NCBI GenBank assembly: GCA_035263845.1
Contig: DATFQY010000191.1
Span: forward strand, 37 to 64,036
Length of the DNA: 64,000 bases
Direction of reading: 5' to 3'
DNA from: Thermoanaerobaculia bacterium
GTDB taxonomy: Bacteria; Acidobacteriota; Thermoanaerobaculia; UBA5066; Gp7-AA6
Shown: positions 4,079 through 56,025 of the stretch, one piece after another
How positions within the stretch are numbered: position 1 is the first letter of the stretch
How the letters are laid out: each line of letters opens with the position of its first letter
The notes under the pieces: generated by a model
Told to the model about the DNA's origin: nothing
The model's database searches: none
Seen by the model: the letters and a program-made list of their open reading frames with translations, nothing else
Made by a program: the position numbers and the translations under genes

Positions 4079-4317
4079 GGCACCACCCTCACGTCGTAAC
4101 CCTCGATGACGGTGTTGGCGAGGAGCTCCTCGGCCATCTTCTTCGCGTCCCGCACGATCTCGGAGGTGTCCGAGCCTTCCACCTCGACGAAGAAGACCTT
4201 GCCCGCCCGGACGTCCGTGACCGACCGGTGGCCCAGCCGCGTGAGCGCCGCGGCGATCGCCTTGCCCTGGGGGTCCAGGACGTCGTGGCGCGGGTAGACC
4301 CGGATCTCGACCTTCAC
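4075..4317 (-). CDS. purS: FGAM synthase subunit PurS
   Basis: 80-aa PurS-like protein immediately upstream of purQ. GTG start overlaps the upstream stop. Confidence 0.85.
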
Positions 4318-5084
4318 GCGTCGAACGTCTCGAAGCCGGTGACCTGGTCGGCGAGCCCGGCGGCGGCCGGCGAATTGGCGCGGGCCAGGGCCTCCGCCAG
4401 CGCGGCCATCGCGAGCGGCGGAATGTTGTTGGTCCGCGAAAGGTGCGTCGCGACGACGCGCTTCAAACCCGGCCAGCTCGAGCGGCGGATCGCCTCAGCG
4501 GACTGGCGGTTGGAGAGGTGCCCCCAGCCGCCCGAGATGCGCTGCTTGAGCGGCCACGTGTAGGGCCCGTCCCGGAGCATGTCCTCGTCGTGGTTGAACT
4601 CCAGGAGGATCGTGGTCGAGCCCTTCAGGAAGTCCACGAAATCTTCCTCCGCCCGCCCCAGGTCCGAGGCGATGACGACGCGGGCGTCGTCGGCCTCGAA
4701 GGCGTACGCGACGGACTCGTTGGCGTCGTGGGGCGTGGCGAAGGCGCGGAATCCCAGGTCCCCGATCCTCGACTCCCGCCGGGCGTCCACCCTCACGAAC
4801 GGGGAGAAGAGGTCTCCCTCCAGGCCGATCGCGTCCGCGGTCCCGGCGGTGGTGAAAATCGGGCACTCCCAGCGGGCGGAGAAGACGAGCGCGCCACTGG
4901 AGTGGTCGCCGTGCTCGTGCGTGACGAAGATGCCGCGGATGGACTCCGGCTCGATGCCGCGGGCGGCCATGCGCCGCTCGATCTCCTTCGCCGAGAGTCC
5001 CGCATCCACCAGCACCCTCGTCCGGCCCGATTCGACGACGCAAGCATTGCCGCCGGATCCGGACGCGAGGATGGACACGCGCAT
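4314..5084 (-). CDS. MBL-fold metallo-hydrolase
   Basis: HEHGDHSSG metallo-beta-lactamase motif; 256 aa. Confidence 0.75.
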   Translation of the reverse strand: MRVSILASGSGGNACVVESGRTRVLVDAGLSAKEIERRMAARGIEPESIRGIFVTHEHGDHSSGALVFSARWECPIFTTAGTADAIGLEGDLFSPFVRVDARRESRIGDLGFRAFATPHDANESVAYAFEADDARVVIASDLGRAEEDFVDFLKGSTTILLEFNHDEDMLRDGPYTWPLKQRISGGWGHLSNRQSAEAIRRSSWPGLKRVVATHLSRTNNIPPLAMAALAEALARANSPAAAGLADQVTGFETFDA

Positions 5085-8030: not shown

Positions 8031-8570
8031 TCACCAGTCCTTGTAGTAGGTGCCGTCGATGGCCCGCAGGTCAGAGAGGGAGAAGACGTCGTAGACGTTC
8101 TGGCCACCCCAGGACAGCGTGTCCGGTTCGTCCTGGAAGGACCTCATTCCCCACTCGTCCTTCTTGGTCATGGGGTCGGTCGGAACCCGCCGGAGAAACT
8201 TCTGCTTCTTGTCGAGCTGGCCAACGAGCGTGACCCCCTCGACCAGGGTCTTCAAGTCGGGCGGGTAGCCTTCCGAGCCGATCTTGACGGGGATCAGGCC
8301 GAGGTCGGAGTACTGCTTGTACTTGTCGATGGCGTCCCGCATCAGGCGGAGCTGGTAGCGCAGCTCCAGTTCGTCCTGGCGTTTGACGGTGTACCGCGCG
8401 ATCGGGACCGCCATGGAGGCGAGGATCGCCACCATCGCCGCGACCACGGCGAGCTCGACGATCGTGAACCCGGATTCGTGAGCCGTGAACCGTGAGCCGT
8501 GAGCCGCGATTGCGGCGACACGCTCCCTCCACGGCTCACGGCTAACGGCTAACGGCTTACGGATCGTCAC
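8031..8570 (-). CDS. GspG-like pseudopilin, second paralog, with an unusually long N-terminal leader
   Basis: ESGFTIVELAVVAAMVAILA plus VPTDP. The only in-frame start is a GTG overlapping the secretin stop, so the first roughly 30 codons are encoded by the palindromic heptamer element. Confidence 0.6.
   Translation of the reverse strand: MTIRKPLAVSREPWRERVAAIAAHGSRFTAHESGFTIVELAVVAAMVAILASMAVPIARYTVKRQDELELRYQLRLMRDAIDKYKQYSDLGLIPVKIGSEGYPPDLKTLVEGVTLVGQLDKKQKFLRRVPTDPMTKKDEWGMRSFQDEPDTLSWGGQNVYDVFSLSDLRAIDGTYYKDW
8477..8566 (-). repeat. Palindromic heptamer-array element, copy 1 (CCGTAAG x4 / loop / CGGCTCA x4)
   Basis: Read directly: four tandem 7-mers on each arm, with the arms complementary. 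It is near-identical apart from the loop to the copy at 25018..25108. Confidence 0.6.
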
Positions 8571-10879
8571 TTCACCTCCACCGCGATCGGGGTCGAGCCG
8601 GCCCCGTCGGGGACCTTCTCGAAGGAAAGCGTGGAATTGCCCTTCGCGATTCCCCGCAACACGATTTCCGCGATCGCCCGGGTGCCCGAAACGTTCAAGA
8701 CGCTGGGGATGTCGATGATGACCCGGCCCGGGTCGATGTGGGAATCGGCGTAGCCGCCGTCGGAAAGGATCGGGCGCACCGAGACAGCGGCGGCCACCGC
8801 GGGGTCGAAGCGGACGGCGATCGAGGTGTTCTCGAGCGTCTTGTTGCCGCCGACCCGGACAATGACGGTCTTCTGCTCTCCCGGCGCCAGCACGAGCTGC
8901 GGCGGGTCGAAGTCGAAGGACACCGAGCCCGCGGGGGCGTCGGTCTGCGCCTGGATGGCGGCCTCCTGCGGCGCCGCCGCTCCGGCTCCCGGGGCGGCCG
9001 CCCCGCCCGGCGGGGGCGTGGGTCGAGGGGTGGGCCGGAAGATGTCGCTCGGCCCCCCGGCCGGGGCCAGGTTGATTCCGGCCGGCGGAGGCGGCGTCGT
9101 GGCCGGCCGCGCCGGGGCCACCGACGGCTGCCGGCCGAGGTCGAAGGGGCCTCCTCCGGCGGGCGACTCGATCCGCGGAGTGCCCTGGAACGAGATGTTG
9201 GCGTCGGTACCGACGTAGACCGGGGTCAGGTCCTCATCGGTGACGTCCGGGATCCGGATGATGTGCGGCGTCAGGGTCAGGACGAGGTCCGTCGTCGACT
9301 TGGTCGTCTTCTTCCTCGAAAGCAGCCTCCCCAGGATCGGGATGTCGCCGAGGAACGGGATCGTGACGTTCCCGTTGGCGATGTCCGTCCGCAACAGCCC
9401 GGCGAGGAAGTTCGTCTCGCCGTCCTTCAGGCGGATGTTGGACGAGATCGTCCGGGTGCCGATGATGGGCTGCTCCTGACCCTGCTGGACGGTGATCGAG
9501 CCGTTCAAGTTGGAGACCTCGACGGTCAGCTTCATCGTGATCTCGCGGTTGTGGTGGACGCGAGGCTCGACGTCGATCTTGATCCCGACGTCCTGGTACT
9601 GGAACGACGTGACCGGGACGATGTTGCCGCCGACGGTCGTGCCGGTGTTGAAGGTCGTCGTCGGGATCGGGACCTTGTCGCCGATGAGCAACTGCGCCTT
9701 CTGCCCCTCGGAGATCCGAAGCTGCGGCTTGGCGAGCAGCTCAGCGTCCGTGTTGTTCTTGATGAACGTGTAGGTCAGCGACGGGATCGTGAAGCCGAAG
9801 GAGCGGACCGAGATCTCCTTCAACTGGTCCCAGGTGAAGCTGCCGTCCGGGACGGGGTTGCCGAAGTTCGTGTTGCCGCCCGGGGGAGCCAGGGTCGCCC
9901 CGACGGAGTAGGAGGAGAGCAGCAGGCCGATGTCGATGTTCTTCGTTGCGTTGATCTGGAGCAGCTCGACGTCCACGATGACCTCGGAAAGCTGCTTGTC
10001 GTTCTGCTCGATGATCTTCTCGGCGATCGCGACCTTGTCGGCCGTGTCGCGCAGGGTGATGGAGTTCTCCGCCTTGTTGATCGAAATGCGGGTCGTCTGA
10101 AGCAGCGACCGCAGCGCGTTGGAGACCTCGGTGACGTCCCCGTTGGAGAGGAAGAAGGTCCGGATGACCAGGTCCTCGTAGGTCTTGCGGTTCTGCGGGT
10201 TATCGGCGGCGATCAGCATCGTGTGCTCGTCCACGACCTTGTAGAAGTGGTTCTCCTGCCGCATCAGGGTCTCCAGGGCGGTCTGGAACTCCACGTTGTT
10301 GAGCACGATCGAGACATTGTCGTCCTTCAGCTGCGGGTCGAAGATGACGTTGATGCCGGCGGCCGAGGCCAGCGACTGGTAGATCTGCTTGATCGGCTTG
10401 GGCGTCGGGAAGTTCAGGTTGATCGGCCGGTCGCTCGTGGGCTCGAGCATCGGGGCGCGGGCGCGGATGCCGCGGGTCCTGCGCTTGGCCGCCTCCATCC
10501 GGCTTTCCCCCGTCCGCTCGGCGATCGCCTTGGCGGCCTCGTCCCTCGCCTTGCGCAGCTCCGTCTCCGCGTACTTGTTGTTGTTGTCCAGGACGACCGC
10601 CTGCTCGAGCTCGACGACGGCCAGCTCCGGCTGGGCGGCGGCTCGGTACGTCTTCCCCTTCTCGAAGTGGAACTGAGACGCCTTGATTTTCGCCTTGGCG
10701 TAGGAAATCCGGTATTGCGAGTTGGCCGGGTCGAGCTCCACCGCCCGGCTGTACTTCATGACCGCGATGTCCCAATGCCCGAGCTGCTCTTCGTCCCGCG
10801 CCTCCTGGTAGGCGCGCGAGCCGGCGCAGCCGACGGCGAAGACAAGAGTCAGGAGTGCAAGAAGTCGCGATAGCTTCAT
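8567..10879 (-). CDS. gspD: Secretin (GspD/PilQ family) with N-terminal lipoprotein/TPR domain and C-terminal Pro-rich plus Ig-like extension
   Basis: Lipoprotein signal MKLSRLLALLTLVFAVGC; secretin C-domain (LKDGETNFLAGLL...GDIPILGRLLS); about 200-aa C-terminal extension. Confidence 0.8.
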   Translation of the reverse strand: MKLSRLLALLTLVFAVGCAGSRAYQEARDEEQLGHWDIAVMKYSRAVELDPANSQYRISYAKAKIKASQFHFEKGKTYRAAAQPELAVVELEQAVVLDNNNKYAETELRKARDEAAKAIAERTGESRMEAAKRRTRGIRARAPMLEPTSDRPINLNFPTPKPIKQIYQSLASAAGINVIFDPQLKDDNVSIVLNNVEFQTALETLMRQENHFYKVVDEHTMLIAADNPQNRKTYEDLVIRTFFLSNGDVTEVSNALRSLLQTTRISINKAENSITLRDTADKVAIAEKIIEQNDKQLSEVIVDVELLQINATKNIDIGLLLSSYSVGATLAPPGGNTNFGNPVPDGSFTWDQLKEISVRSFGFTIPSLTYTFIKNNTDAELLAKPQLRISEGQKAQLLIGDKVPIPTTTFNTGTTVGGNIVPVTSFQYQDVGIKIDVEPRVHHNREITMKLTVEVSNLNGSITVQQGQEQPIIGTRTISSNIRLKDGETNFLAGLLRTDIANGNVTIPFLGDIPILGRLLSRKKTTKSTTDLVLTLTPHIIRIPDVTDEDLTPVYVGTDANISFQGTPRIESPAGGGPFDLGRQPSVAPARPATTPPPPAGINLAPAGGPSDIFRPTPRPTPPPGGAAAPGAGAAAPQEAAIQAQTDAPAGSVSFDFDPPQLVLAPGEQKTVIVRVGGNKTLENTSIAVRFDPAVAAAVSVRPILSDGGYADSHIDPGRVIIDIPSVLNVSGTRAIAEIVLRGIAKGNSTLSFEKVPDGAGSTPIAVEVK

Positions 10880-18649: not shown

Positions 18650-19966
18650 ATGTTTCTCTACCGAATCCTGTCGGTCCTGGCGCTGCTGGCCTACTCCCCG
18701 GTCGCCCTTTTCCGGTCGATGACCGGGCGGAAGAAAATGGGGGACGTCCGGGGCAAGCTGGGGCTGCTCCCCTACCCCGATCTGGACGGCGGAATCTGGG
18801 TCCACGCAGTCTCGGTCGGCGAGGTCGGGGTGGCGCGCAACCTGTTGACCGCGCTCTCGAAGCGGGCGCCGGCGGGCACGCGGCTCGGGCTGTCCGCGAC
18901 GACTGTCGCCGGCCTGGAAACGGCCCGCCGCACGTCGGTGGATCGCTGGCCGGTCTTCTCGTTCCCGCTCGACCTCGCGGGTCCGGTCGAGAAGGCCCTG
19001 GCGGCCGTCCGGCCGGGCCTCGTCGTCCTGACGGAGACGGAACTCTGGCCGCTCCTGATCGACCGGGCTGTCCGGCGAGGAGCCGGCGTCGCCCTGGTCA
19101 ACGGGAGGATTTCGGACCGGTCGCTGCGCCGTTACCGGCTCGTGCGGCGGTGGTTCGCACGGAGCCTGGAGCGGATTTCCCTCTTCGCGATGCAAAGCGA
19201 GGAGGACTCGAGGCGCATCCGGGAGCTTGGGGCGCCGGCGGACCGCGTCCTCGTAACCGGCAACGTCAAGTACGACCTCGCGCCGGCTCCCCCCTTCGCG
19301 GACGCCGCCCGGCTTTCGTCTCTCGCGGCCGGCCGGCCGGTCCTCGTCGCGGCTTCGACCGGGCCGGGCGAAGAAGCGATCGTGCTGGACGCCTGGAAGG
19401 GTTTGGAGTCGCGCACCGTGCTCGCGATCGCCCCGCGCCGCCCCGAGCGGTTCGAAGAGGTCGCCCGGCTGGTCGAATCGAAAGGCTTCGCGGTGATCCG
19501 CCGCTCGGACCCCGGCGCGCTCTCAAATCACAAATCACAAATCCCAAATCACAAATCTTCGGTCTACGTTCTCGATACGGTCGGAGAGCTCGCTTCGCTG
19601 TACGGCGAGGCGGCGATCGCCTTCATCGGGGGGAGCCTGATCCCCACCGGCGGCCACAATCCGATCGAGGCCTGGGCGCAAGGAGTCGCCGTCCTCGTCG
19701 GCCCGCACACTCAGAGTTTTCGCGAGATCACCGAGGCGGGCGAGAAGCAGGGAGTCCTCCACCGAGTGGCCGGGGGCGAGGAGCTCGCGAGGGCGTTCGA
19801 GGCCGCCGCCGCCGACCCCGAGGCCGCCGCCGCGCGAGGCGCCGCCGCTCGCGCGTTCGTCGCGAAGAGCCGGGGAGCGGCCGAGGCGACCGCGGAGGCC
19901 ATCGTCAAGCTCCTGCCCGCCGAGCCGGTTCCCGCCAAAGAGAAGTCGCGAGCTGCGCTCCCGTGA
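18650..19966 (+). CDS. waaA: 3-deoxy-D-manno-octulosonic acid transferase
   Basis: KdtA-like over its full length (VSVGEV..., LDTVGEL...GGSL...GGHNP). Carries an in-frame heptamer-repeat segment. Confidence 0.85.
   Translation: MFLYRILSVLALLAYSPVALFRSMTGRKKMGDVRGKLGLLPYPDLDGGIWVHAVSVGEVGVARNLLTALSKRAPAGTRLGLSATTVAGLETARRTSVDRWPVFSFPLDLAGPVEKALAAVRPGLVVLTETELWPLLIDRAVRRGAGVALVNGRISDRSLRRYRLVRRWFARSLERISLFAMQSEEDSRRIRELGAPADRVLVTGNVKYDLAPAPPFADAARLSSLAAGRPVLVAASTGPGEEAIVLDAWKGLESRTVLAIAPRRPERFEEVARLVESKGFAVIRRSDPGALSNHKSQIPNHKSSVYVLDTVGELASLYGEAAIAFIGGSLIPTGGHNPIEAWAQGVAVLVGPHTQSFREITEAGEKQGVLHRVAGGEELARAFEAAAADPEAAAARGAAARAFVAKSRGAAEATAEAIVKLLPAEPVPAKEKSRAALP
19524..19560 (-). repeat. GAAGA-(TTTGTGA)4 element, in-frame inside kdtA in reverse orientation
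   Basis: aaatcacaaatcacaaatcccaaatcacaaatcttc encodes SNHKSQIPNHKS. Confidence 0.6.
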
Positions 19967-22897: not shown

Positions 22898-23479
22898 CTA
22901 TCGCAGCTCGGAATTCCAGTAAGCGACGTCGAGGAAGTTCCGCCAGGCCGGGTGGACCTTGTTCGAGCCGAAGTGGCCGACCGGATGCCAGCGGGGCTTC
23001 TTGGGCTGGCTGATCAGCCTCATCGAGGCCTCGTGCGGGCTGCGGTTGCCCTTCTTGACGTTGCAGGCCAGGCACGCGCACACGACGTTCTCCCAGTTGG
23101 ACCGCCCGCCCCGCGACAACGGGATGACGTGGTCGAGCGACAGGTCCGAGGAAGAGAACTTGTGCCCGCAGTACTGGCAGCGGTTCCCGTCGCGCAGGTA
23201 AATGTTGTGCCGCGAGAACTTCACGTCCTGCCTCGGCAGCCGGTCGAACTCCTTCAGCACGATGACGCGCGGAACGCGGATCGCCATCGAGGGCGTCAGG
23301 ACGACCTCGTCCTGCGGCTGCACGGGGATGTCGCACCAGTTCTCGAACTCGTAGGTCGAGTAGTCCGGCAGGACGGCGCGGACGTGCCCCTTGTAGAAGA
23401 GCGAGAACGCCTTCCGGACCGAAGTGACCTGAATCGCCTGAAATACGCGATTCAAAACGAGCACATGAGTATCCAGCAT
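22898..23479 (-). CDS. HNH endonuclease (McrA-like)
   Basis: CQYCGHKF...LDHVIPLSRGG...NWENVVCACLACNVKKGN. Confidence 0.7.
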   Translation of the reverse strand: MLDTHVLVLNRVFQAIQVTSVRKAFSLFYKGHVRAVLPDYSTYEFENWCDIPVQPQDEVVLTPSMAIRVPRVIVLKEFDRLPRQDVKFSRHNIYLRDGNRCQYCGHKFSSSDLSLDHVIPLSRGGRSNWENVVCACLACNVKKGNRSPHEASMRLISQPKKPRWHPVGHFGSNKVHPAWRNFLDVAYWNSELR

Positions 23480-23532
23480 GCGACTTTCTCGAAGGCGGCA
23501 ATTATAGTCAAAGGAGTGAGGAAGGTCAGGTC

Positions 23533-24555
23533 TTGACGCCACGCGTGCCGCGGAAACGGCTGCTTTCCGTCATCGACGGCTTCGCCGGGAGGCGCCTCGT
23601 CGTGGCCGGAGACTACGTCCTCGACCGGTTCCTCTACGGGCATCCCAAGCGCGTCAGCCGCGAGGCACCGGTCCTGATCCTCCGGTTCTGGAAGGAGGAG
23701 CACCTGCCCGGCGGCGCCGGAAACACCGCGGCCAACGTCCGGTCGCTCGGGGGCGTCCCGATCCCCGTCGGGGCGGTGGGAAAGGACGACGCCGGCGCGA
23801 GACTGCGGGAAGCGCTGGCCGGACGCGGGATCGACACCGACGGACTGCTGGCGGCACCGGACTACGGGACCCCGACGAAGACGAGGATCCTCGCGGGAGC
23901 TCCGCACGGGATCAAGCAGCAGGTCGTCCGCTACGACCGCGAGTCGAATCTCCCGGAAGACTCCGCGCTCGCCGCGAGGATCGCCGACGCGCTCGAAAGG
24001 AGCGCCGCCGGAGCCGACGCGGCGGTCCTCTCGGACTACGGTTACGGCGCGGTCCCGAAGGACGCGAACGCAATCCTGCGCGGGAGCCTTCCCTCCGGCG
24101 CGCCGATCCTGGTGGATTCGCGCCACGGTCTGACCGGCTTCGCGGGCGCGGACGCGCTGACGCCCAACGAGGAAGAGCTCGAGGAGTGGATCGGCAAGCC
24201 GCTCGGCGACTCCGCCGAGGAGCTTGAGAGCGCCGCGCGCTCGCTCCAGAAGGCCGTGGCCGCCCGGATCGTCCTCGTCACCCGCGGCTCGCGGGGGATG
24301 GCGCTCTTCCAGGATGGCGCCTCGCCAGTCTCGATCCCGGTCCACGGGACCGACCAGGTCGCCGACGTCACCGGGGCCGGGGACACGGTGCTCGCGACCT
24401 TCTCGCTCGCGCTCGCCTCCGGAGCCTCGCCGCTCGAGGCCGCGCTGCTGGCCAACTTCGCCGGCGGCGTGGTCGTCATGAAGATGGGGACGGCGACGAT
24501 CACCCCGGAGGAGCTCCGAGACGCGGTCGGTTCGGATCGAACGATCCTCGAATGA
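23533..24555 (+). CDS. hldA: D-glycero-beta-D-manno-heptose-7-phosphate kinase (HldE domain I / HldA)
   Basis: PfkB carbohydrate kinase (TGAGDT). Sits next to the adenylyltransferase half. Confidence 0.8.
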   Translation: MTPRVPRKRLLSVIDGFAGRRLVVAGDYVLDRFLYGHPKRVSREAPVLILRFWKEEHLPGGAGNTAANVRSLGGVPIPVGAVGKDDAGARLREALAGRGIDTDGLLAAPDYGTPTKTRILAGAPHGIKQQVVRYDRESNLPEDSALAARIADALERSAAGADAAVLSDYGYGAVPKDANAILRGSLPSGAPILVDSRHGLTGFAGADALTPNEEELEEWIGKPLGDSAEELESAARSLQKAVAARIVLVTRGSRGMALFQDGASPVSIPVHGTDQVADVTGAGDTVLATFSLALASGASPLEAALLANFAGGVVVMKMGTATITPEELRDAVGSDRTILE

Positions 24556-25034
24556 CGGGAGGCCTCTCGAAGATCCTCTCCCGCGAGGAGCTTCTCGAAG
24601 CGGCGAAGCGCCAGGGCGCCGCGGGCCGCTCGATCGTGTTCGCCAACGGCGCGTTCGACCTGCTCCACGTGGGCCACGTCCGCTACCTCGAGGCGGCGCG
24701 CCGCGAGGGGGACTGGCTCGTGGTCGGCGTCAACTCCGACCGGTCGGTCCGCGCGTCCAAGGGGGACGGCCGCCCGATCCTGCCGGAGTCCGAGCGGTCG
24801 GAGGTCGTCGCTGCCCTCCGGTGCGTGGACGCCGTCGTGATCTTCGACGAGGACTCTCCGGCGGAGCTGATCGCGGCGCTGCGCCCGGCGGTCCACGCCA
24901 AGGGCACCGACTACACTTCCGAGTCGGTTCCCGAGCGCTCGGTCGTCGCCTCTTACGGGGGCCGAACTGTGATCGTCGGGGACCCGAAGGACCACGCCAC
25001 GACCGACCTGATCGAACGGATCCGTAAGCCGTAA
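24552..25034 (+). CDS. hldC: D-glycero-beta-D-manno-heptose-1-phosphate adenylyltransferase (HldE domain II / HldC)
   Basis: Cytidylyltransferase HxGH motif (GAFDLLHVGHVRYL). ATGA overlap with the kinase gene. Confidence 0.8.
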   Translation: MTGGLSKILSREELLEAAKRQGAAGRSIVFANGAFDLLHVGHVRYLEAARREGDWLVVGVNSDRSVRASKGDGRPILPESERSEVVAALRCVDAVVIFDEDSPAELIAALRPAVHAKGTDYTSESVPERSVVASYGGRTVIVGDPKDHATTDLIERIRKP

Positions 25035-25108
25035 GCCGTCAGCCGTCAGCCGAAGCCATGCTTGATACTGGGACTCCGGCTCACCGCTCACGGCTCACGG
25101 CTCACGCG
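25018..25108 (+). repeat. Palindromic heptamer-array element, copy 2
   Basis: ccgtaagccgtaagccgtcagccgtcagccg / 25-nt loop / cggctcaccgctcacggctcacggctcacg. It contains the hldC stop and ends 2 nt before the waaC-like ATG. Confidence 0.6.
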
Positions 25109-25110
25109 TC

Positions 25111-26100
25111 ATGAGGATCCTGATCGTCCGCCTCTCGTCGCTGGGCGACATCATCCACACGCTCCCGCTGGCGCTGAACGCGCACATGGGCGGCGCCCGG
25201 GTCGCGTGGCTGACGGAGCGCGGATACCGGGGGCTGCTCGAAGGAAACCCGTGCATCGAGCGGCTCTTCCTCGCCGACACGAGGCGATGGCGCGCCAACC
25301 TCGCTTCGATCTCACACTGGAAGGCGGTGGTGGAGCTGCGCCGCGGGCTGAAAGAGTTCGACCCCGAGGTGACTCTCGATCCGCAGGGGCTCTGGAAGTC
25401 GGCCCTCCTGGCGAAGCTGGCGGGCTGTCCCGTGGTTGGGTTCTCCGCGGGGTCCCGCCGGGAGCCCTCCTCCGCCGTGCTCGCCGCGACGGGCGTGGAC
25501 ATCGCGCCGGAGGCGGAGCACGTCGTGGACCAGAACCTTTCCCTGCTCGCCCCGCTGGGAATCCCGGTCGCTCGCCGAGCCCCGGATGCCCGCTACCTTC
25601 TGGAGCCGGAAGACTCCCGGGCCGCCGCCTTCCTCCGGACACTGCCGACTCCCTTCGCGCTCTACCATCCCGGCTCGGCCCGCTCGACGAAATCCTGGGG
25701 GGAGCGCAACTACGCCCAGCTCGCCGAGCAGCTGCACAAGAAGCTCGGGCTCTACCCGGCGATCTCCTGGGGGCCGGGAGACGAGCGTCGCGCCGAGCGG
25801 CTCGGGAGACTCCTCCCCTACTCCGCGAAGATCCCCGCGGTCCATTTTCGCGGCCTCGCCCAGGTCCTCTCGCGCGCGAGCCTGTTCGTCGCGGGCGACA
25901 CCGGGCCGGTCCACCTCGCAGACGCGATCGGCGTCCCGGCGCTGGCGCTCTTCGGCCCCGACGCGTACAAGCGCAACCTGCCCGAGCGCAACCGGCCGTA
26001 CCGGGGCGCCGCCTTGAGTTACGATCAGGCGGCGTCGGTCGAAACCGTCGCGCGCAAGGCCGTGGAGCTCGTCGAGAACGCCGGAACGATCGAGGGGTGA
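25111..26100 (+). CDS. ADP-heptose:LPS heptosyltransferase I (GT9, WaaC-like)
   Basis: MRILIVRLSSLGDIIHTLP...GDTGPVHLADAIGVP. Confidence 0.7.
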   Translation: MRILIVRLSSLGDIIHTLPLALNAHMGGARVAWLTERGYRGLLEGNPCIERLFLADTRRWRANLASISHWKAVVELRRGLKEFDPEVTLDPQGLWKSALLAKLAGCPVVGFSAGSRREPSSAVLAATGVDIAPEAEHVVDQNLSLLAPLGIPVARRAPDARYLLEPEDSRAAAFLRTLPTPFALYHPGSARSTKSWGERNYAQLAEQLHKKLGLYPAISWGPGDERRAERLGRLLPYSAKIPAVHFRGLAQVLSRASLFVAGDTGPVHLADAIGVPALALFGPDAYKRNLPERNRPYRGAALSYDQAASVETVARKAVELVENAGTIEG

Positions 26101-26807: not shown

Positions 26808-26885
26808 GCAGTTTGTGATTTGTGATTTGTGATTTGTGAACAGGGCGGAAAGGCCGACTTCTTGCCCTGATCAGAAATCACCAAT
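26808..26885 (+). repeat. (TTTGTGA)4-ACAGGGCGGAAAGGCCGA hairpin module, right after a stop codon
   Basis: Read directly. The heptamer run places TGA in all three frames. The downstream GAAATCACCAATCCCTCAC is partly complementary to it. Confidence 0.6.
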
Positions 26886-28762: not shown

Positions 28763-28836
28763 GGTGGGTGTTAGGTCCTAGGTGGTAGGAAAGCCCCGCT
28801 TCCGGGCCTACCACCTACCACTTGCCACCTAACACC
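28763..28836 (+). repeat. Heptamer-array palindrome (GGTGGGT GTTAGGT CCTAGGT GGTAGGA / loop / CCTACCA CCTACCA CTTGCCA CCTAACA)
   Basis: Read directly. Lies between the pilB stop and the pilT start. Confidence 0.5.
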
Positions 28837-34845: not shown

Positions 34846-34912
34846 AGAATCTGTGATTTGTGATTTTGTGATTTGTGAACAGGGCGGAAAGCCGATAGCG
34901 CGGCTGCCCTCA
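34846..34912 (+). repeat. GAAGAATC-(TGTGATTTGTGATTTTGTGATTTGTGA)-ACAGGGCGGAAAGCCGA hairpin module
   Basis: Read directly. Begins right after the DUF192 stop codon. Confidence 0.6.
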
Positions 34913-38471: not shown

Positions 38472-38510
38472 AGAAGAATTTGTGATTTGTGAATTGTGAT
38501 CAGGGCCAAC
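38472..38510 (+). repeat. GAAGAAT-(TTGTGATTTGTGAATTGTGA)-TCAGGGCC element right after the galU stop
   Basis: Read directly. Confidence 0.55.
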
Positions 38511-44942: not shown

Positions 44943-45653
44943 CTACAGCCCCCTAGCTCCCTCCGGAGTGAAGAGCGCGTCGTCGAGCTTGCCGGGCCGG
45001 TAGTCGAGGTACTCGAGCTTCGTCACCGACTTCGGGTCCTTCGACAGCAGGTCGCGGATCTCCATCTCCGAGACGATCGTCTTCCCGGCCTTCGTCGAGA
45101 ACTTCGTGAAGGTGATCTCCTTGGCTTCCTTCCCCGACGGGAGGTGGAAGAGGACCTTCACGGGGAGTTTCTCCGCCTCGTTCCACCAGAGAAGGACACG
45201 AGGGTAGGGAGCGGTGGGCGACCTGGCCGTCAGCTCCAGAACGCGGCACGGCTTTCCGTTCACGGTGTCGGTCTCGGGCTTGAGCGTCGCGGTGTAGTCC
45301 ACGGAGAAGCGCAGGCTGGCGACGTCGGCCATCGAGGCGCCGCCGAGAAGCCGCTGGTTGGGCGTGACGGGAATCGGCCGGCTCGCGCCCGGGATCAGAA
45401 TCCACATCCTCGGCCCGTCGGTCAGAACTTTGCGCCCCTTGTTCCCCCCGCTTCGGAAAACGATGACTCCGCGATCGCGCCCCTTCGTGTACACCTCGAA
45501 GTCCGTGGATTGGCCCGGCTTCCCATCGGTCACCTGGGTAGCCCTGGCCGAGATGACCGCCTCGTCGAACGCGTTGCGCGTGGCATCCGCGATCTGCAGC
45601 CACGACTGCACGTCCGGCGCCGCCGCCAGTAAAGCGATCAAGAGAGCTCTCAT
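44943..45653 (-). CDS. LolA-like outer-membrane lipoprotein carrier/sorting protein
   Basis: Signal peptide; about 237-aa LolA_like fold; immediately downstream of the ABC pair. Confidence 0.55.
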   Translation of the reverse strand: MRALLIALLAAAPDVQSWLQIADATRNAFDEAVISARATQVTDGKPGQSTDFEVYTKGRDRGVIVFRSGGNKGRKVLTDGPRMWILIPGASRPIPVTPNQRLLGGASMADVASLRFSVDYTATLKPETDTVNGKPCRVLELTARSPTAPYPRVLLWWNEAEKLPVKVLFHLPSGKEAKEITFTKFSTKAGKTIVSEMEIRDLLSKDPKSVTKLEYLDYRPGKLDDALFTPEGARGL

Positions 45654-45707
45654 GGAATCTTCAACGTCGGGGCGGCGATCAGTCTTCCTCAAAGGGGCGG
45701 CGAGGCC

Positions 45708-45818
45708 GGGTCCAATGGACCTTGGACGAACCTTTGACCTTGGACTTGGGACTTTCGACACACTGGACCTTGGACTTTGGACGTGCGACCGACCTTGGAC
45801 CTTGGACCTTGGACCGTC
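45708..45818 (-). repeat. Degenerate (GGTCCAA)n / (CTTGGAC)n heptamer array, about 14 units
   Basis: Read directly. Lies between the tandem TGATGA stops of the permease and the lolA-like start. Confidence 0.55.
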
Positions 45819-49294: not shown

Positions 49295-49392
49295 GGAAGC
49301 GCATGGGGCCTGGTGGCTCTCGCGGACTTCAAATCCGTCGGCGTCGCGGTTATGCCGGGACGGGTGGGTTCGATTCCCACACGCTTCCGCCA
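49295..49392 (+). tRNA. selC: tRNA-Sec (anticodon UCA)
   Basis: Folded by hand: 7-bp acceptor stem GGAAGCG/CGCTTCC, 6-bp D-stem with 4-nt loop, anticodon loop CTTCAAA, long variable arm, T-arm GTGGG-TTCGATT-CCCAC, G discriminator and CCA. Confidence 0.75.
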
Positions 49393-50904: not shown

Positions 50905-50981
50905 GGGGCTGTAGCTCAGTTTGGGAGAGCGCCTGAATGGCATTCAGGAGGTCGACGGTTCGATCCCGTTCAGGGCTTTCG
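50905..50981 (+). tRNA. tRNA-Ala-like copy with a disrupted acceptor stem (probable pseudo-tRNA)
   Basis: Its first 66 nt are identical to tRNA-Ala(GGC), but the 3' acceptor strand CAGGGCT cannot pair with GGGGCTG and no CCA is present. Confidence 0.4.
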
Positions 50982-51090: not shown

Positions 51091-51167
51091 GGGGCTGTAG
51101 CTCAGTTTGGGAGAGCGCCTGAATGGCATTCAGGAGGTCGACGGTTCGATCCCGTTCAGCTCCACCA
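51091..51167 (+). tRNA. tRNA-Ala (anticodon GGC)
   Basis: Canonical cloverleaf, G3:U70 identity pair, CCA encoded. Confidence 0.9.
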
Positions 51168-55942: not shown

Positions 55943-55952
55943 GAAAGAGTTC

Positions 55953-56010
55953 CTTAGTCCTTGGTCCTTGGTCCCTGGTCGTGGTCGCCCCGACCAAGGA
56001 CGAAGGACAA
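55953..56010 (-). repeat. Heptamer-array palindrome (CTTAGTC CTTGGTC CTTGGTC CCTGGTC / GACCAAG GACGAAG GACAAGG GACTAAG)
   Basis: Read directly. Lies between the SDR stop and the permease start. Confidence 0.55.
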
Positions 56011-56025
56011 GGGACTAAGCACGCT

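Follow-up and report, generated by a model that had tools for sequence, protein, structure and literature searches.

Two palindromes of about 90 nt, each made of two tandem arrays of a 7-nt unit, are located at gene junctions in a 64,000-nt stretch of DNA from a Thermoanaerobaculia bacterium of the Acidobacteriota (GenBank assembly GCA_035263845.1, contig DATFQY010000191.1, positions 37 to 64,036; hereafter the window). Copy A lies on the minus strand between a secretin and a pseudopilin gene, copy B on the plus strand between an hldC-like cytidylyltransferase and a heptosyltransferase gene. The two are no special two-copy element but members of a large, fast-changing class of heptamer hairpins. 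In this lineage, inverted pairing of neighbouring heptamer arrays is the rule, the pairs are placed precisely, and their polarity follows the direction of the genes. The occupancy of junctions is polymorphic, and the heptamer families are replaced fast.

Two inverted heptamer pairs at gene junctions

Both palindromes had been described in an earlier reading of the window from its letters alone (the sequence-only reading), and they were confirmed at their places and on their strands. Tandem Repeats Finder (TRF) reported all four arrays with a period of 7 and 4.3 to 5.3 copies (Table 1). A search of the window (68% GC) with a two-unit pattern, allowing at most two mismatches, gave 14 matches against 1.5 expected, a number reached in none of 100 shuffled sequences. 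The exact 14-mer GATCCGTAAGCCGT, said to be common to both copies, was indeed found exactly twice, at 8552-8565 on the minus and at 25019-25032 on the plus strand, with 0 occurrences expected. The flanks of the two copies, including the neighbouring genes, are unrelated, and the loops are entirely different. A segmental duplication is thus excluded, and from the loops it follows that neither copy was pasted whole from the other.

The arms of copy A are 34 nt long and 85% complementary; those of copy B are 33 nt long, 82% complementary and 18 nt apart. The 5' arms are of the CCGTNAG type given by the sequence-only reading, with N being A, T or G in copy A and A or C in copy B. The variable base is confined to this arm. 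The motif CGGCT(C/A/T)A, which had been ascribed to the 3' arm, is the complement of the 5' arm of copy A, and the 3' arm itself is nearly uniform CGGCTCA. The predicted hairpins were borne out by RNA folding on both strands of both copies, with z-scores against dinucleotide shuffles between -4.4 and -9.2. On the gene strand, copy A reached -60.8 kcal/mol (z -6.6) and copy B -45.6 kcal/mol (z -4.4); on the opposite strand, the values were -61.3 kcal/mol (z -9.2) and -64.5 kcal/mol (z -8.0), respectively. Scans of both loci gave no promoter-like or terminator-like site. The pattern of a Rho-independent terminator, a GC-rich stem with a U tract behind it, is not present; the 3' flanks read AAUCCGGG in copy A and CGUCAUGA in copy B.

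The position at stop/start junctions also stood, with two corrections concerning the exact boundaries. In copy B, the stop codon of the upstream gene is not at the beginning of the 5' arm but inside its second heptamer. No Shine-Dalgarno-like motif was found before the heptosyltransferase ATG at 25111. The pseudopilin gene behind copy A begins not at the 3' arm but at GTG 8570-8568, which overlaps the secretin stop. This GTG is the sole in-frame ATG, GTG or TTG of the pseudopilin open reading frame (ORF) 8031-8570. As it is the only canonical in-frame start, the entire copy A palindrome lies inside the 179-aa pseudopilin ORF. Gene callers returned the same ORF on L121 and L122, two independent soil-metagenome assemblies of the same organism, which are 99.87% and 99.45% identical to the window (loci from other assemblies are given by L numbers).

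The pseudopilin ORF has a sub-threshold match to the Pfam N_methyl domain (19.5 bits, cut-off 21.2) at residues 31-54, and the palindrome is predicted from the sequence to encode a 33-aa leader. The variable bases of the 5' arm, in the order A, T, T, G, keep the GTG-started frame open. A perfectly complementary G in the second unit would make a TGA in the pseudopilin frame. Between L122 and the window, two substitutions fall in this arm; both are still G-U paired on the mRNA strand, and both alter the leader peptide. The loop of copy A (8507-8531, minus strand) contains the strong Shine-Dalgarno-like motif GGAGGGAG and, 1 nt behind it, a GTG shifted by one base against the pseudopilin frame. 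By arithmetic, one added heptamer in the 3' arm would put this GTG in frame.

Table 1 Positions of the two palindromes, their neighbouring genes and further heptamer arrays in the window
Feature	Position	Strand	Description
Copy A, whole palindrome	8473..8566	minus	TRF, arm alignment, fold
Copy A, 5' arm	8566-8532	minus	CCGTAAG CCGTTAG CCGTTAG CCGTGAG CCG (CCGTNAG x4.7)
Copy A, spacer	8531-8507	minus	25 nt
Copy A, 3' arm	8506-8477	minus	CGGCTCA CGGCTCA CGGTTCA CGGCTCA CG (CGGCTCA x4.3)
Secretin gene	8567-10879	minus	upstream of copy A; Pfam Secretin
GTGA overlap	8567..8570	minus	secretin stop TGA 8569-8567, pseudopilin start GTG 8570-8568
Prepilin cleavage/methylation site G↓FTIVE	8454..8471	minus	Gly codon 8471-8469; 6 nt after 3' arm of copy A
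Copy B, whole palindrome	25019..25106	plus	TRF, arm alignment, fold
Copy B, 5' arm	25022-25055	plus	CCGTAAG x2, CCGTCAG x2, then CCG
Copy B, 3' arm	25074-25106	plus	CGGCTCA CCGCTCA CGGCTCA CGGCTCA CG
hldC-like cytidylyltransferase gene	24552-25034	plus	hldC / RfaE domain II type, upstream of copy B; Pfam
Stop TAA of the hldC-like gene	25032-25034	plus	supplied by second heptamer of copy B 5' arm
Heptosyltransferase gene (family-9 glycosyltransferase)	25111-26100	plus	downstream of copy B; Pfam
Heptosyltransferase ATG	25111-25113	plus	5 nt after copy B 3' arm
GGTGGTA/CCTACCA palindrome	28767..28836	plus	between two T2SSE ATPase genes, straight after the TAG stop of the first
TCCTTGG/CCAAGGA palindrome	55951..56018	minus	between an SDR gene and an amino-acid permease gene, starting about 8-10 nt after the TGA stop of the former
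GGACCTT-like direct block, about 12 units	45730-45816		TRF periods 7, 25, 30; at or overlapping 5' end of LolA-like lipoprotein gene (44943-45761, minus)
(TGTGATT)n array	26812-26839	plus	after gene stop; stops in all three frames
(TGTGATT)n array	34852-34878	plus	after gene stop; stops in all three frames
(TGTGATT)n array	38478-38500	plus	after gene stop; stops in all three frames
(TGTGATT)n array	56841-56821	minus	after gene stop; stops in all three frames

Heptamer arrays in related genomes

The wider sample consists of loci L123 to L202, 255 kb of Thermoanaerobaculia DNA from soil metagenomes, in assemblies centred on two operons. It holds 161 heptamer arrays, approximately one per 1.6 kb. 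Among 62 neighbouring couples (at most 90 nt apart), 54 are inverted-complementary at 80% or more and two are direct, against 12% in a partner-swapped control. Filtering for complementarity left 51 distinct palindromes, which belong to dozens of heptamer families. Their first arm begins 4 to 16 nt past the upstream stop, or a few nucleotides before it, as judged from clean upstream frame calls only; in about 20 pairs the longest-open-frame caller mis-assigned the upstream gene, owing to spurious long frames in GC-rich DNA. The G-rich arm leads in 42 of the 46 informative pairs (p = 5e-9, p-values being optimistic because the tests pool partly orthologous junctions), and the purine-rich arm leads in 38 pairs against 9. 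Units with a stop codon, which place stops in all three frames of an array, are found in 22/50 first arms and 6/50 second arms. As the GC skew follows the gene strand, replication direction is inseparable from transcription direction.

The pseudopilin downstream of copy A has about 3,000 homologues, and Thermoanaerobaculia (Acidobacteriota) is the only taxon named for any of them. Most homologues are 162 aa long, with a 16-aa leader that is a translated heptamer array, and their leaders end at the same G↓FT. The unit of the leader array varies by one or two bases between lineages and is uniform within each: SRLTAHGSR corresponds to (GGCTCAC)n, ASRLTPHASR to (GCCTCAC)n, ASRLPPPASR to (GCCTCCC)n, VSRLPSPVSR to (GTCTCCC)n and VSRFPFPVSR to (GTTTCCC)n. 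Such a series would be expected if a slipping array evolved in concert.

At the secretin/pseudopilin junction (junction A), DNA from 80 metagenomic loci was compared, and several states were distinguished. Mostly in more distant relatives, the junction is array-free, with a short leader and a stop/start overlap (GTGA or TGATG); this state is probably ancestral. A second state is a lone C-rich array right after the ATG. In a third, palindromes with matching arms are present: CCGTNAG/CGGCTCA in the window, CCGTCAG/CGGCTCA in L127 and L128, CGAGGTG/CACMCCG in L130, GGGAGAC/CGTCTAC in L148 and L153, and GGAAGAC/GTCTCCC in L151. Finally, L147 carries an upstream arm without a partner. Nearly all close relatives (79-94% protein identity) retain some array at this junction, though the heptamer changes.

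The reading frame of the pilins is kept through these insertions. All 23 elements whose second arm abuts the prepilin G↓F/Y-T site keep the pilin frame open from end to end (23/23), against 20/46 for the other two frames. In 18 of these 23, the first arm is preceded at a distance of 0-12 nt by an in-frame ATG or GTG, which lies at the upstream stop. The leaders encoded by palindromes are 31-41 aa long. In the CCGTNAG unit, the variable position makes or avoids stops: read as C-CGT-NAG, N must not be T, and read as CCG-TNA-G, it must be T or C. The bases found at this position are A, T, T, A in P0002 (a 92%-identical homologue), A, T, A, A in L147, and all C in L128 and P0004. At least part of the periodic stem mismatch is therefore the price of an open ORF.

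Around the junction of the hldC-like and heptosyltransferase genes (junction B), the synteny of PfkB kinase, cytidylyltransferase, heptosyltransferase and DUF3108 genes is conserved in relatives. The junction is empty in L203/L204 (86% identity; ...ATCAAGCTCTCGTGAGGATCC, GTGA overlap) and in L207/L208 (75% identity; ...ATCCGCAAGACTTGAAGATCC, TTGA overlap). L205 (85% identity) carries the same CCGTAAG/CGGCTCA family as the window, and L206 (81% identity; metagenome-assembled genome GCA_035259605.1 at NCBI) another one, CGGAAAC/CGATTCC. The insertion parts two genes that otherwise overlap by 4 nt. Where the site is empty, the hldC-like gene has a TGA stop overlapping the start of the following gene; where it is filled, the gene stops on a codon of the first arm. 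Native Ile-Arg-Lys codons (ATCCGYAAG), which empty sites have too, are continuous with the first heptamer unit. At the PfkB/hldC junction, the window has an ATGA overlap, L205 a second CCGTAAG/CGGCTCA palindrome, and L207 GAATCGG/CGATTCC.

Replacement can be seen between nearly identical strains. L148 and L153 share 97% identity across 2.85 kb as far as the pseudopilin stop, beyond which L148 has GTAGTCG/CTACCGA and L153 has CGGAAAA/CGTTTCC. The genes of L134 and L136 are 95-98% identical, and their palindromes differ at two junctions. The CCGTNAG/CGGCTCA family precedes different pseudopilin paralogues in L124, L128, L134, L147 and L180, and is present twice in L205. The end of its pilin elements is always ...CTCACGA(A/G), after which come the codons for the final residues of the leader. 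Sub-types of the family can be told at the boundary of arm and loop, which reads GCCGTGGA in copy A, L124, L128b and L134, GCCGAAG in copy B and L128a, and TCGAAG in L127. By these shared sub-types, copy B is closer to a junction-A element of another genome than to copy A of its own genome. Outside orthologous junctions, the loops are unrelated. No unit-number polymorphism was detected among the window, L121 and L122, nor between L148 and L153 at their shared junction; these are consensus assemblies, in which rare variants would be missed.

Further arrays in the window and in other phyla

Heptamer arrays dominate the long repeats of the window. Perfect repeats of about three copies are found at nine loci for units of 7 nt and at none for units of 8-12 nt, next to four loci for 5 nt and three for 6 nt. 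In copy A and in the palindrome at 28767, the G-richer arm leads relative to the genes, despite opposite DNA strands. In copy B, G and C are nearly balanced between the two arms. The polarity of the palindrome at 55951-56018 is reversed, as its C-rich arm leads. The GGACCTT block at 45730-45816 belongs to the same heptamer family as this palindrome.

Five (TGTGATT)n arrays are present in the window. The non-repeat 5' flank GAAGAATC is common to those at 34852 and 56841, with a variant at 38478, and the non-repeat 3' flank ACAGGGCGGAAAG(G)CCGA is common to those at 26812 and 34852. These flanks appear to mark a second dispersed family, the conserved part of which would reach past the array. The glutamine-synthetase ORF apparently ends on a TGA within the array at 56841-56821. 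A further heptamer array, (CAAATCA)n with five units (19521-19557, plus strand), is located within the ORF of KdtA (Kdo transferase) and translated as ...SNHKSQIPNHKS.... It is also present in L206 at 4285-4322, where KdtA is 78% identical (PEPKSQITNHKSQ), so that a heptamer repeat is conserved in a coding region.

With Rfam 15 at gathering thresholds, only tRNAs pass in the window. They include a selenocysteine tRNA gene (49295-49388, plus strand; RF01852, 70.6 bits) and two ordinary tRNAs (50905-50978 and 51091-51164). A gene with an HNH-endonuclease domain (22898-23542, minus strand) is kept in synteny beside the heptose-biosynthesis genes in all relatives examined (L203, L206, L207). It is called at 193 aa in the relatives, and the longest ORF in the window has 214 aa. 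No connection of this gene with the heptamer repeats was found.

Beyond the lineage, contigs of 185,579 species genomes were scanned for three GCTCACG units (GCTCACGGCTCACGGYTCACG), which gave at least 120 loci; the source genome of the window is not among the matches listed. Streptomyces, Treponema, Gemmatimonadota, Acidobacteriota, Saprospiraceae and others are represented among those listed. Most listed loci are plain arrays of 3-29 units, and 11/120 have an inverted partner within 130 nt. Loci with an inverted partner, as recognised by eye among the matches listed, were seen in Gemmatimonadota (L030, L106 and additionally L011), Pyrinomonadaceae (L057), Chitinophagaceae (L108) and Anaerolineae (L052). 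The listed (GCTCACG)n arrays reach up to 29 units in unrelated phyla, including Streptomyces, Treponema primitia, Curtobacterium and Pontiella, and several of them stand at contig ends, which suggests assembly breakage.

Origin, possible effect and known systems

With little more than even confidence, we favour a combined explanation. The lineage-wide heptamer palindromes would be products of slippage and template switching, would be tolerated where one gene stops and the next starts, and would enforce translational coupling once transcribed. Of these parts, the classification is the strong one and the coupling the weak one. The first step would be the growth of a C-rich heptamer array beside a gene start by replication slippage. 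Subsequently, an inverted copy may arise by strand or template switching, or be copied from another locus of the same family. The typical architecture, at junctions of co-transcribed genes, is a tandem 7-nt array and, after a further 10-50 nt, a second array made of the complementary unit. The two arms would then homogenise their own variants separately, leaving a mismatch every 7 bp. L148 may illustrate this, as its first arm still appears to match an older unit, CGTCTCC, and its second arm is now CGTCTAC. In the end, palindromes would be lost and replaced quickly. Purifying selection would act as a filter that keeps insertions leaving both genes intact, as the patterns suggest. The first arm, often with stops in every frame, would end the upstream ORF, and the usually stop-free second arm would let translation pass. 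In pseudopilins, the palindrome may be held in frame as a disposable leader of 31-41 aa that is removed by prepilin peptidase.

Once transcribed, the interrupted stem of about 30 bp (-45 to -61 kcal/mol) would bury the nucleotides after the start codon in copy A and the start region lacking a Shine-Dalgarno motif in copy B. The downstream cistron would consequently be translated mainly by ribosomes arriving from the upstream gene, which melt the stem. In this way, the hairpin would preserve the coupling formerly given by the ancestral 4-nt overlap. It may also block 3' exonucleases or serve as a processing site. A tie to translational coupling had already been proposed in the sequence-only reading, and the anatomy fits: in copy A, the start overlaps the upstream stop, and in copy B, the 5' arm contains the stop, with a start lacking a Shine-Dalgarno motif behind the 3' arm. 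The empty orthologous junctions in some relatives and the swapping of elements do not agree with the discrete RNA element of that reading.

Several observations weigh against the favoured explanation. Neutral or selfish DNA would account for the presence/absence pattern and the fast replacement no less well than a function would, and the optimism of the pooled p-values mentioned above applies to the polarity. The exact 14-mer shared at the 5' edge of copies A and B is unexplained by purely local growth. Most arm mismatches are a non-G base opposite a second-arm C, a strong asymmetry. Across the 51 palindromes, the commonest mismatch is an A in the first arm opposite C (61 cases, against 27 of G opposite T), counts that are inflated by repeated units but clear in direction. 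A opposite C is a true mismatch on the mRNA strand and a G-U wobble on the other strand, whereas G opposite T is the wobble on the mRNA. The non-mRNA strand also folds better in 33/50 palindromes. Thus, the comparison of G-U with A-C in the 51 palindromes gave no sign of RNA-level selection, and its result went against the mRNA strand. A single small hint to the contrary comes from the two L122 substitutions that keep G-U pairing in the mRNA. The asymmetry is not accounted for by selection on an mRNA hairpin, and only partly by stop-codon toggling.

A less probable, though serious, alternative is that the palindromes are by-products or selfish DNA, generated by a slippage or template-switch bias or by copying between loci, without any role in expression, and seen only where they are harmless, i.e., between genes and in cleaved leaders. 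The empty orthologous sites at both junctions, the replacement of families between strains with 95-98% identical genes, the unconserved loops and the lack of a G-U preference on the mRNA strand are all in line with it. Plain arrays of the same heptamer in many phyla are as well, and a purifying filter alone would give the open-frame and stop-codon patterns. However, the presence of some array at junction A in nearly all close relatives suggests a very high input rate or else retention, a 30-bp stem beside a start codon cannot be neutral for expression, and the polarity exceeds in part what stop avoidance would give, as only 22/50 first arms contain stops. It is doubtful, in comparison, that the palindromes are a self-propagating element of a new kind, or are made by an activity dedicated to producing repeats, with functionally specialised arms. 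If so, with a G-rich arm that often bears stops and a C-rich arm mostly free of them, they would split overlapping junctions or ride in frame in cleavable leaders, and the hairpin would keep the coupling.

A non-autonomous mobile element of the miniature inverted-repeat transposable element (MITE) or REPIN type, served by a transposase elsewhere in the genome and inserting at stop/start junctions without target duplication, is unlikely. The occurrence of one family at different junctions within and between genomes (two in the window, two in L205, and in L124, L128, L134, L147 and L180) would suit such an element, as would the shared edge motifs (GATCCGTAAGCCGT at the 5' edge, GCCGTGGA or GCCGAAG at the arm-loop boundary), the polymorphic insertion with clean empty sites, and the size of about 90 nt and hairpin shape resembling REPINs. 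On the other hand, the filled (window, L205, L206) and empty (L203, L207) states of junction B revealed no target-site duplication as left by a MITE. The internal sequence, conserved in MITEs, is not conserved between copies, and a sequence-specific transposase leaves dozens of heptamers with one architecture unexplained. The first unit at junction B blends into native codons of the empty sites. Neither a RAYT (Y1 transposase) nor any other transposase was found among the 20 ORFs scanned with Pfam, which cover one third of the window. The arms are tandem direct heptamers and not palindromes of the repetitive extragenic palindromic (REP) type; in the predicted folds, they pair arm with arm, with no pairing within an arm. 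Membership in a REP or MITE family, which the sequence-only reading had kept in mind, was rejected on these grounds of arm structure, target duplication and core.

Two further explanations are both quite improbable. In a phase-variation switch, the gain or loss of one 7-nt unit would shift the pseudopilin frame and turn a secretion or pilus system on or off, comparable to the CTCTT repeats of Neisseria opa. That most relatives have arrays in the stretch from the start codon to the cleavage site of the major pseudopilin is suggestive of such a switch, and the out-of-frame GTG behind the Shine-Dalgarno-like motif in the copy A loop could come into frame with one extra unit. The arrays, however, have only about four units, no difference in copy number was found (window, L121 and L122; the 97%-identical L148 and L153), all assembled consensus sequences are in frame, and copy B and the other intergenic members could not act in this manner. 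The other explanation is that of the sequence-only reading, a dedicated cis-regulatory RNA, i.e., a conserved processing or stability site such as an RNase III target, selected as an RNA structure. What stood of it is a dispersed hairpin family precisely at stop/start junctions; a discrete conserved RNA did not emerge, given the unconserved loops and dozens of unrelated heptamers. The long interrupted stems do fold well beyond shuffles, the arms match within each element across the heptamer families at one junction, and the two substitutions in L122 keep the pairing on the mRNA strand. An origin by inverted duplication would predict matching arms just as well, though, and the mismatch spectrum favours the non-mRNA strand. 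The elements are missing from orthologous junctions in relatives, and no Rfam family matched: even permissive scans gave nothing for copy A and a chance match to mir-4529 for copy B (33 bits against a threshold of 88).

Whichever explanation holds, this lineage offers an unusually dense set of arrays with fast turnover, with about one array per 1.6 kb around a pilus/secretion operon. Since empty, single-array and palindromic states are found at one junction, together with polarity and in-frame leaders, the origin (slippage, template switching, mobility) and the effect (coupling, mRNA stability) are directly testable. If the palindromes were self-propagating, operon junctions would be undergoing active remodelling across Thermoanaerobaculia, and possibly also in Gemmatimonadota and other soil phyla (L011, L030, L052, L057, L106, L108). 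For annotation, the 31-41-aa pseudopilin leaders of this lineage should be treated as repeat-encoded, with the start codon upstream of the palindrome, and such intergenic hairpins should not be labelled terminators or novel non-coding RNAs.

Regarding known systems, the opa genes of Neisseria carry CTCTT pentamer repeats in the region coding for the signal peptide, and these repeats are long, direct and phase-variable. Like them, copy A and most homologous leaders have a unit not divisible by three between the start codon and the mature part of a surface-structure protein, upstream of the leader cleavage site. Unlike them, the arrays described here have about four units, are often palindromic and show no length polymorphism among the assemblies compared. 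Rickettsia palindromic elements reportedly insert in frame in protein-coding genes and are translated without destroying the protein. The in-frame translated palindromes of the pseudopilins resemble them in this respect, but those elements are said to be 100-150 bp long, of conserved sequence and situated in surface loops of many proteins, whereas the heptamer arrays are mostly confined to a cleaved leader. REPs stabilise upstream mRNA. As in the REP, BIME and REPIN elements of proteobacteria (Bertels and Rainey 2011, PMC3116915), the hairpins here are dispersed, about 90 nt long, mostly located between co-transcribed genes and variable in presence between strains. REP arms, in contrast, are short imperfect palindromes with a conserved head, tied to RAYT; here they are tandem heptamers of many families, and none of the 20 scanned ORFs is a RAYT.

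The sequence-only reading had stated that the element matches no repeat class. It does match one, the heptanucleotide simple-sequence repeats, including the inverted pairs of Xanthomonas (PMC4692102): the units are 7 nt long, head to tail and in at least three copies, and they exceed other long unit sizes. Heptanucleotide repeats have been reported since 2007 as the commonest long simple repeats in many prokaryotic genomes, with no accepted origin or function; according to PMC4679880 and PMC4692102, which cite Mrazek et al. 2007, they are the most abundant class of long simple-sequence repeats in many prokaryotes. In Beggiatoaceae, TAACTGA repeats are direct and stand just upstream of start codons (MacGregor 2015, PMC4679880). 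Together with the cyanobacterial short tandemly repeated repetitive (STRR) heptamers, they share with the present arrays genome-specific heptamers in 2-6 copies at many intergenic sites. They are often directly 5' of starts and sometimes over ORF ends, with stops in forward orientation, and a translational role was suggested (PMC4679880). The difference lies in the pairing, as one inverted repeat was present in 170 sets in the Guaymas genome (PMC4679880), against 54/62 inverted couples here.

The closest precedent, and the nearest described case, is that of the inverted heptamer pairs of Xanthomonas. In X. campestris and X. axonopodis, GGGAATC arrays form 70-75 close convergent pairs on opposite strands (Rehm et al. 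2015, PMC4692102). They are intergenic, mostly of four units, transcribed and of unknown function, and their positions are kept between species while length and sequence vary (PMC4692102). The pairs in Thermoanaerobaculia likewise consist of intergenic 7-nt tandem arrays in a GC-rich genome, with two arrays of the same heptamer close by, one per strand and convergent. In Xanthomonas, however, there is one G-tract family, read as G-quadruplex-forming, whereas the pairs described here belong to dozens of families, most of which lack G3 tracts; CCGTNAG and CGGCTCA have neither GGG nor CCC, and only some other families in relatives do. The Xanthomonas paper (PMC4692102) does not include stop/start placement, gene polarity, in-frame translation as a leader or the swapping of families between near-identical strains, and no description of such heptamer repeats in Acidobacteriota was found in the literature. 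The many heptamer families, their placement at stop/start junctions and polarity, the in-frame prepilin leaders and the replacement between near-identical strains appear to be new.

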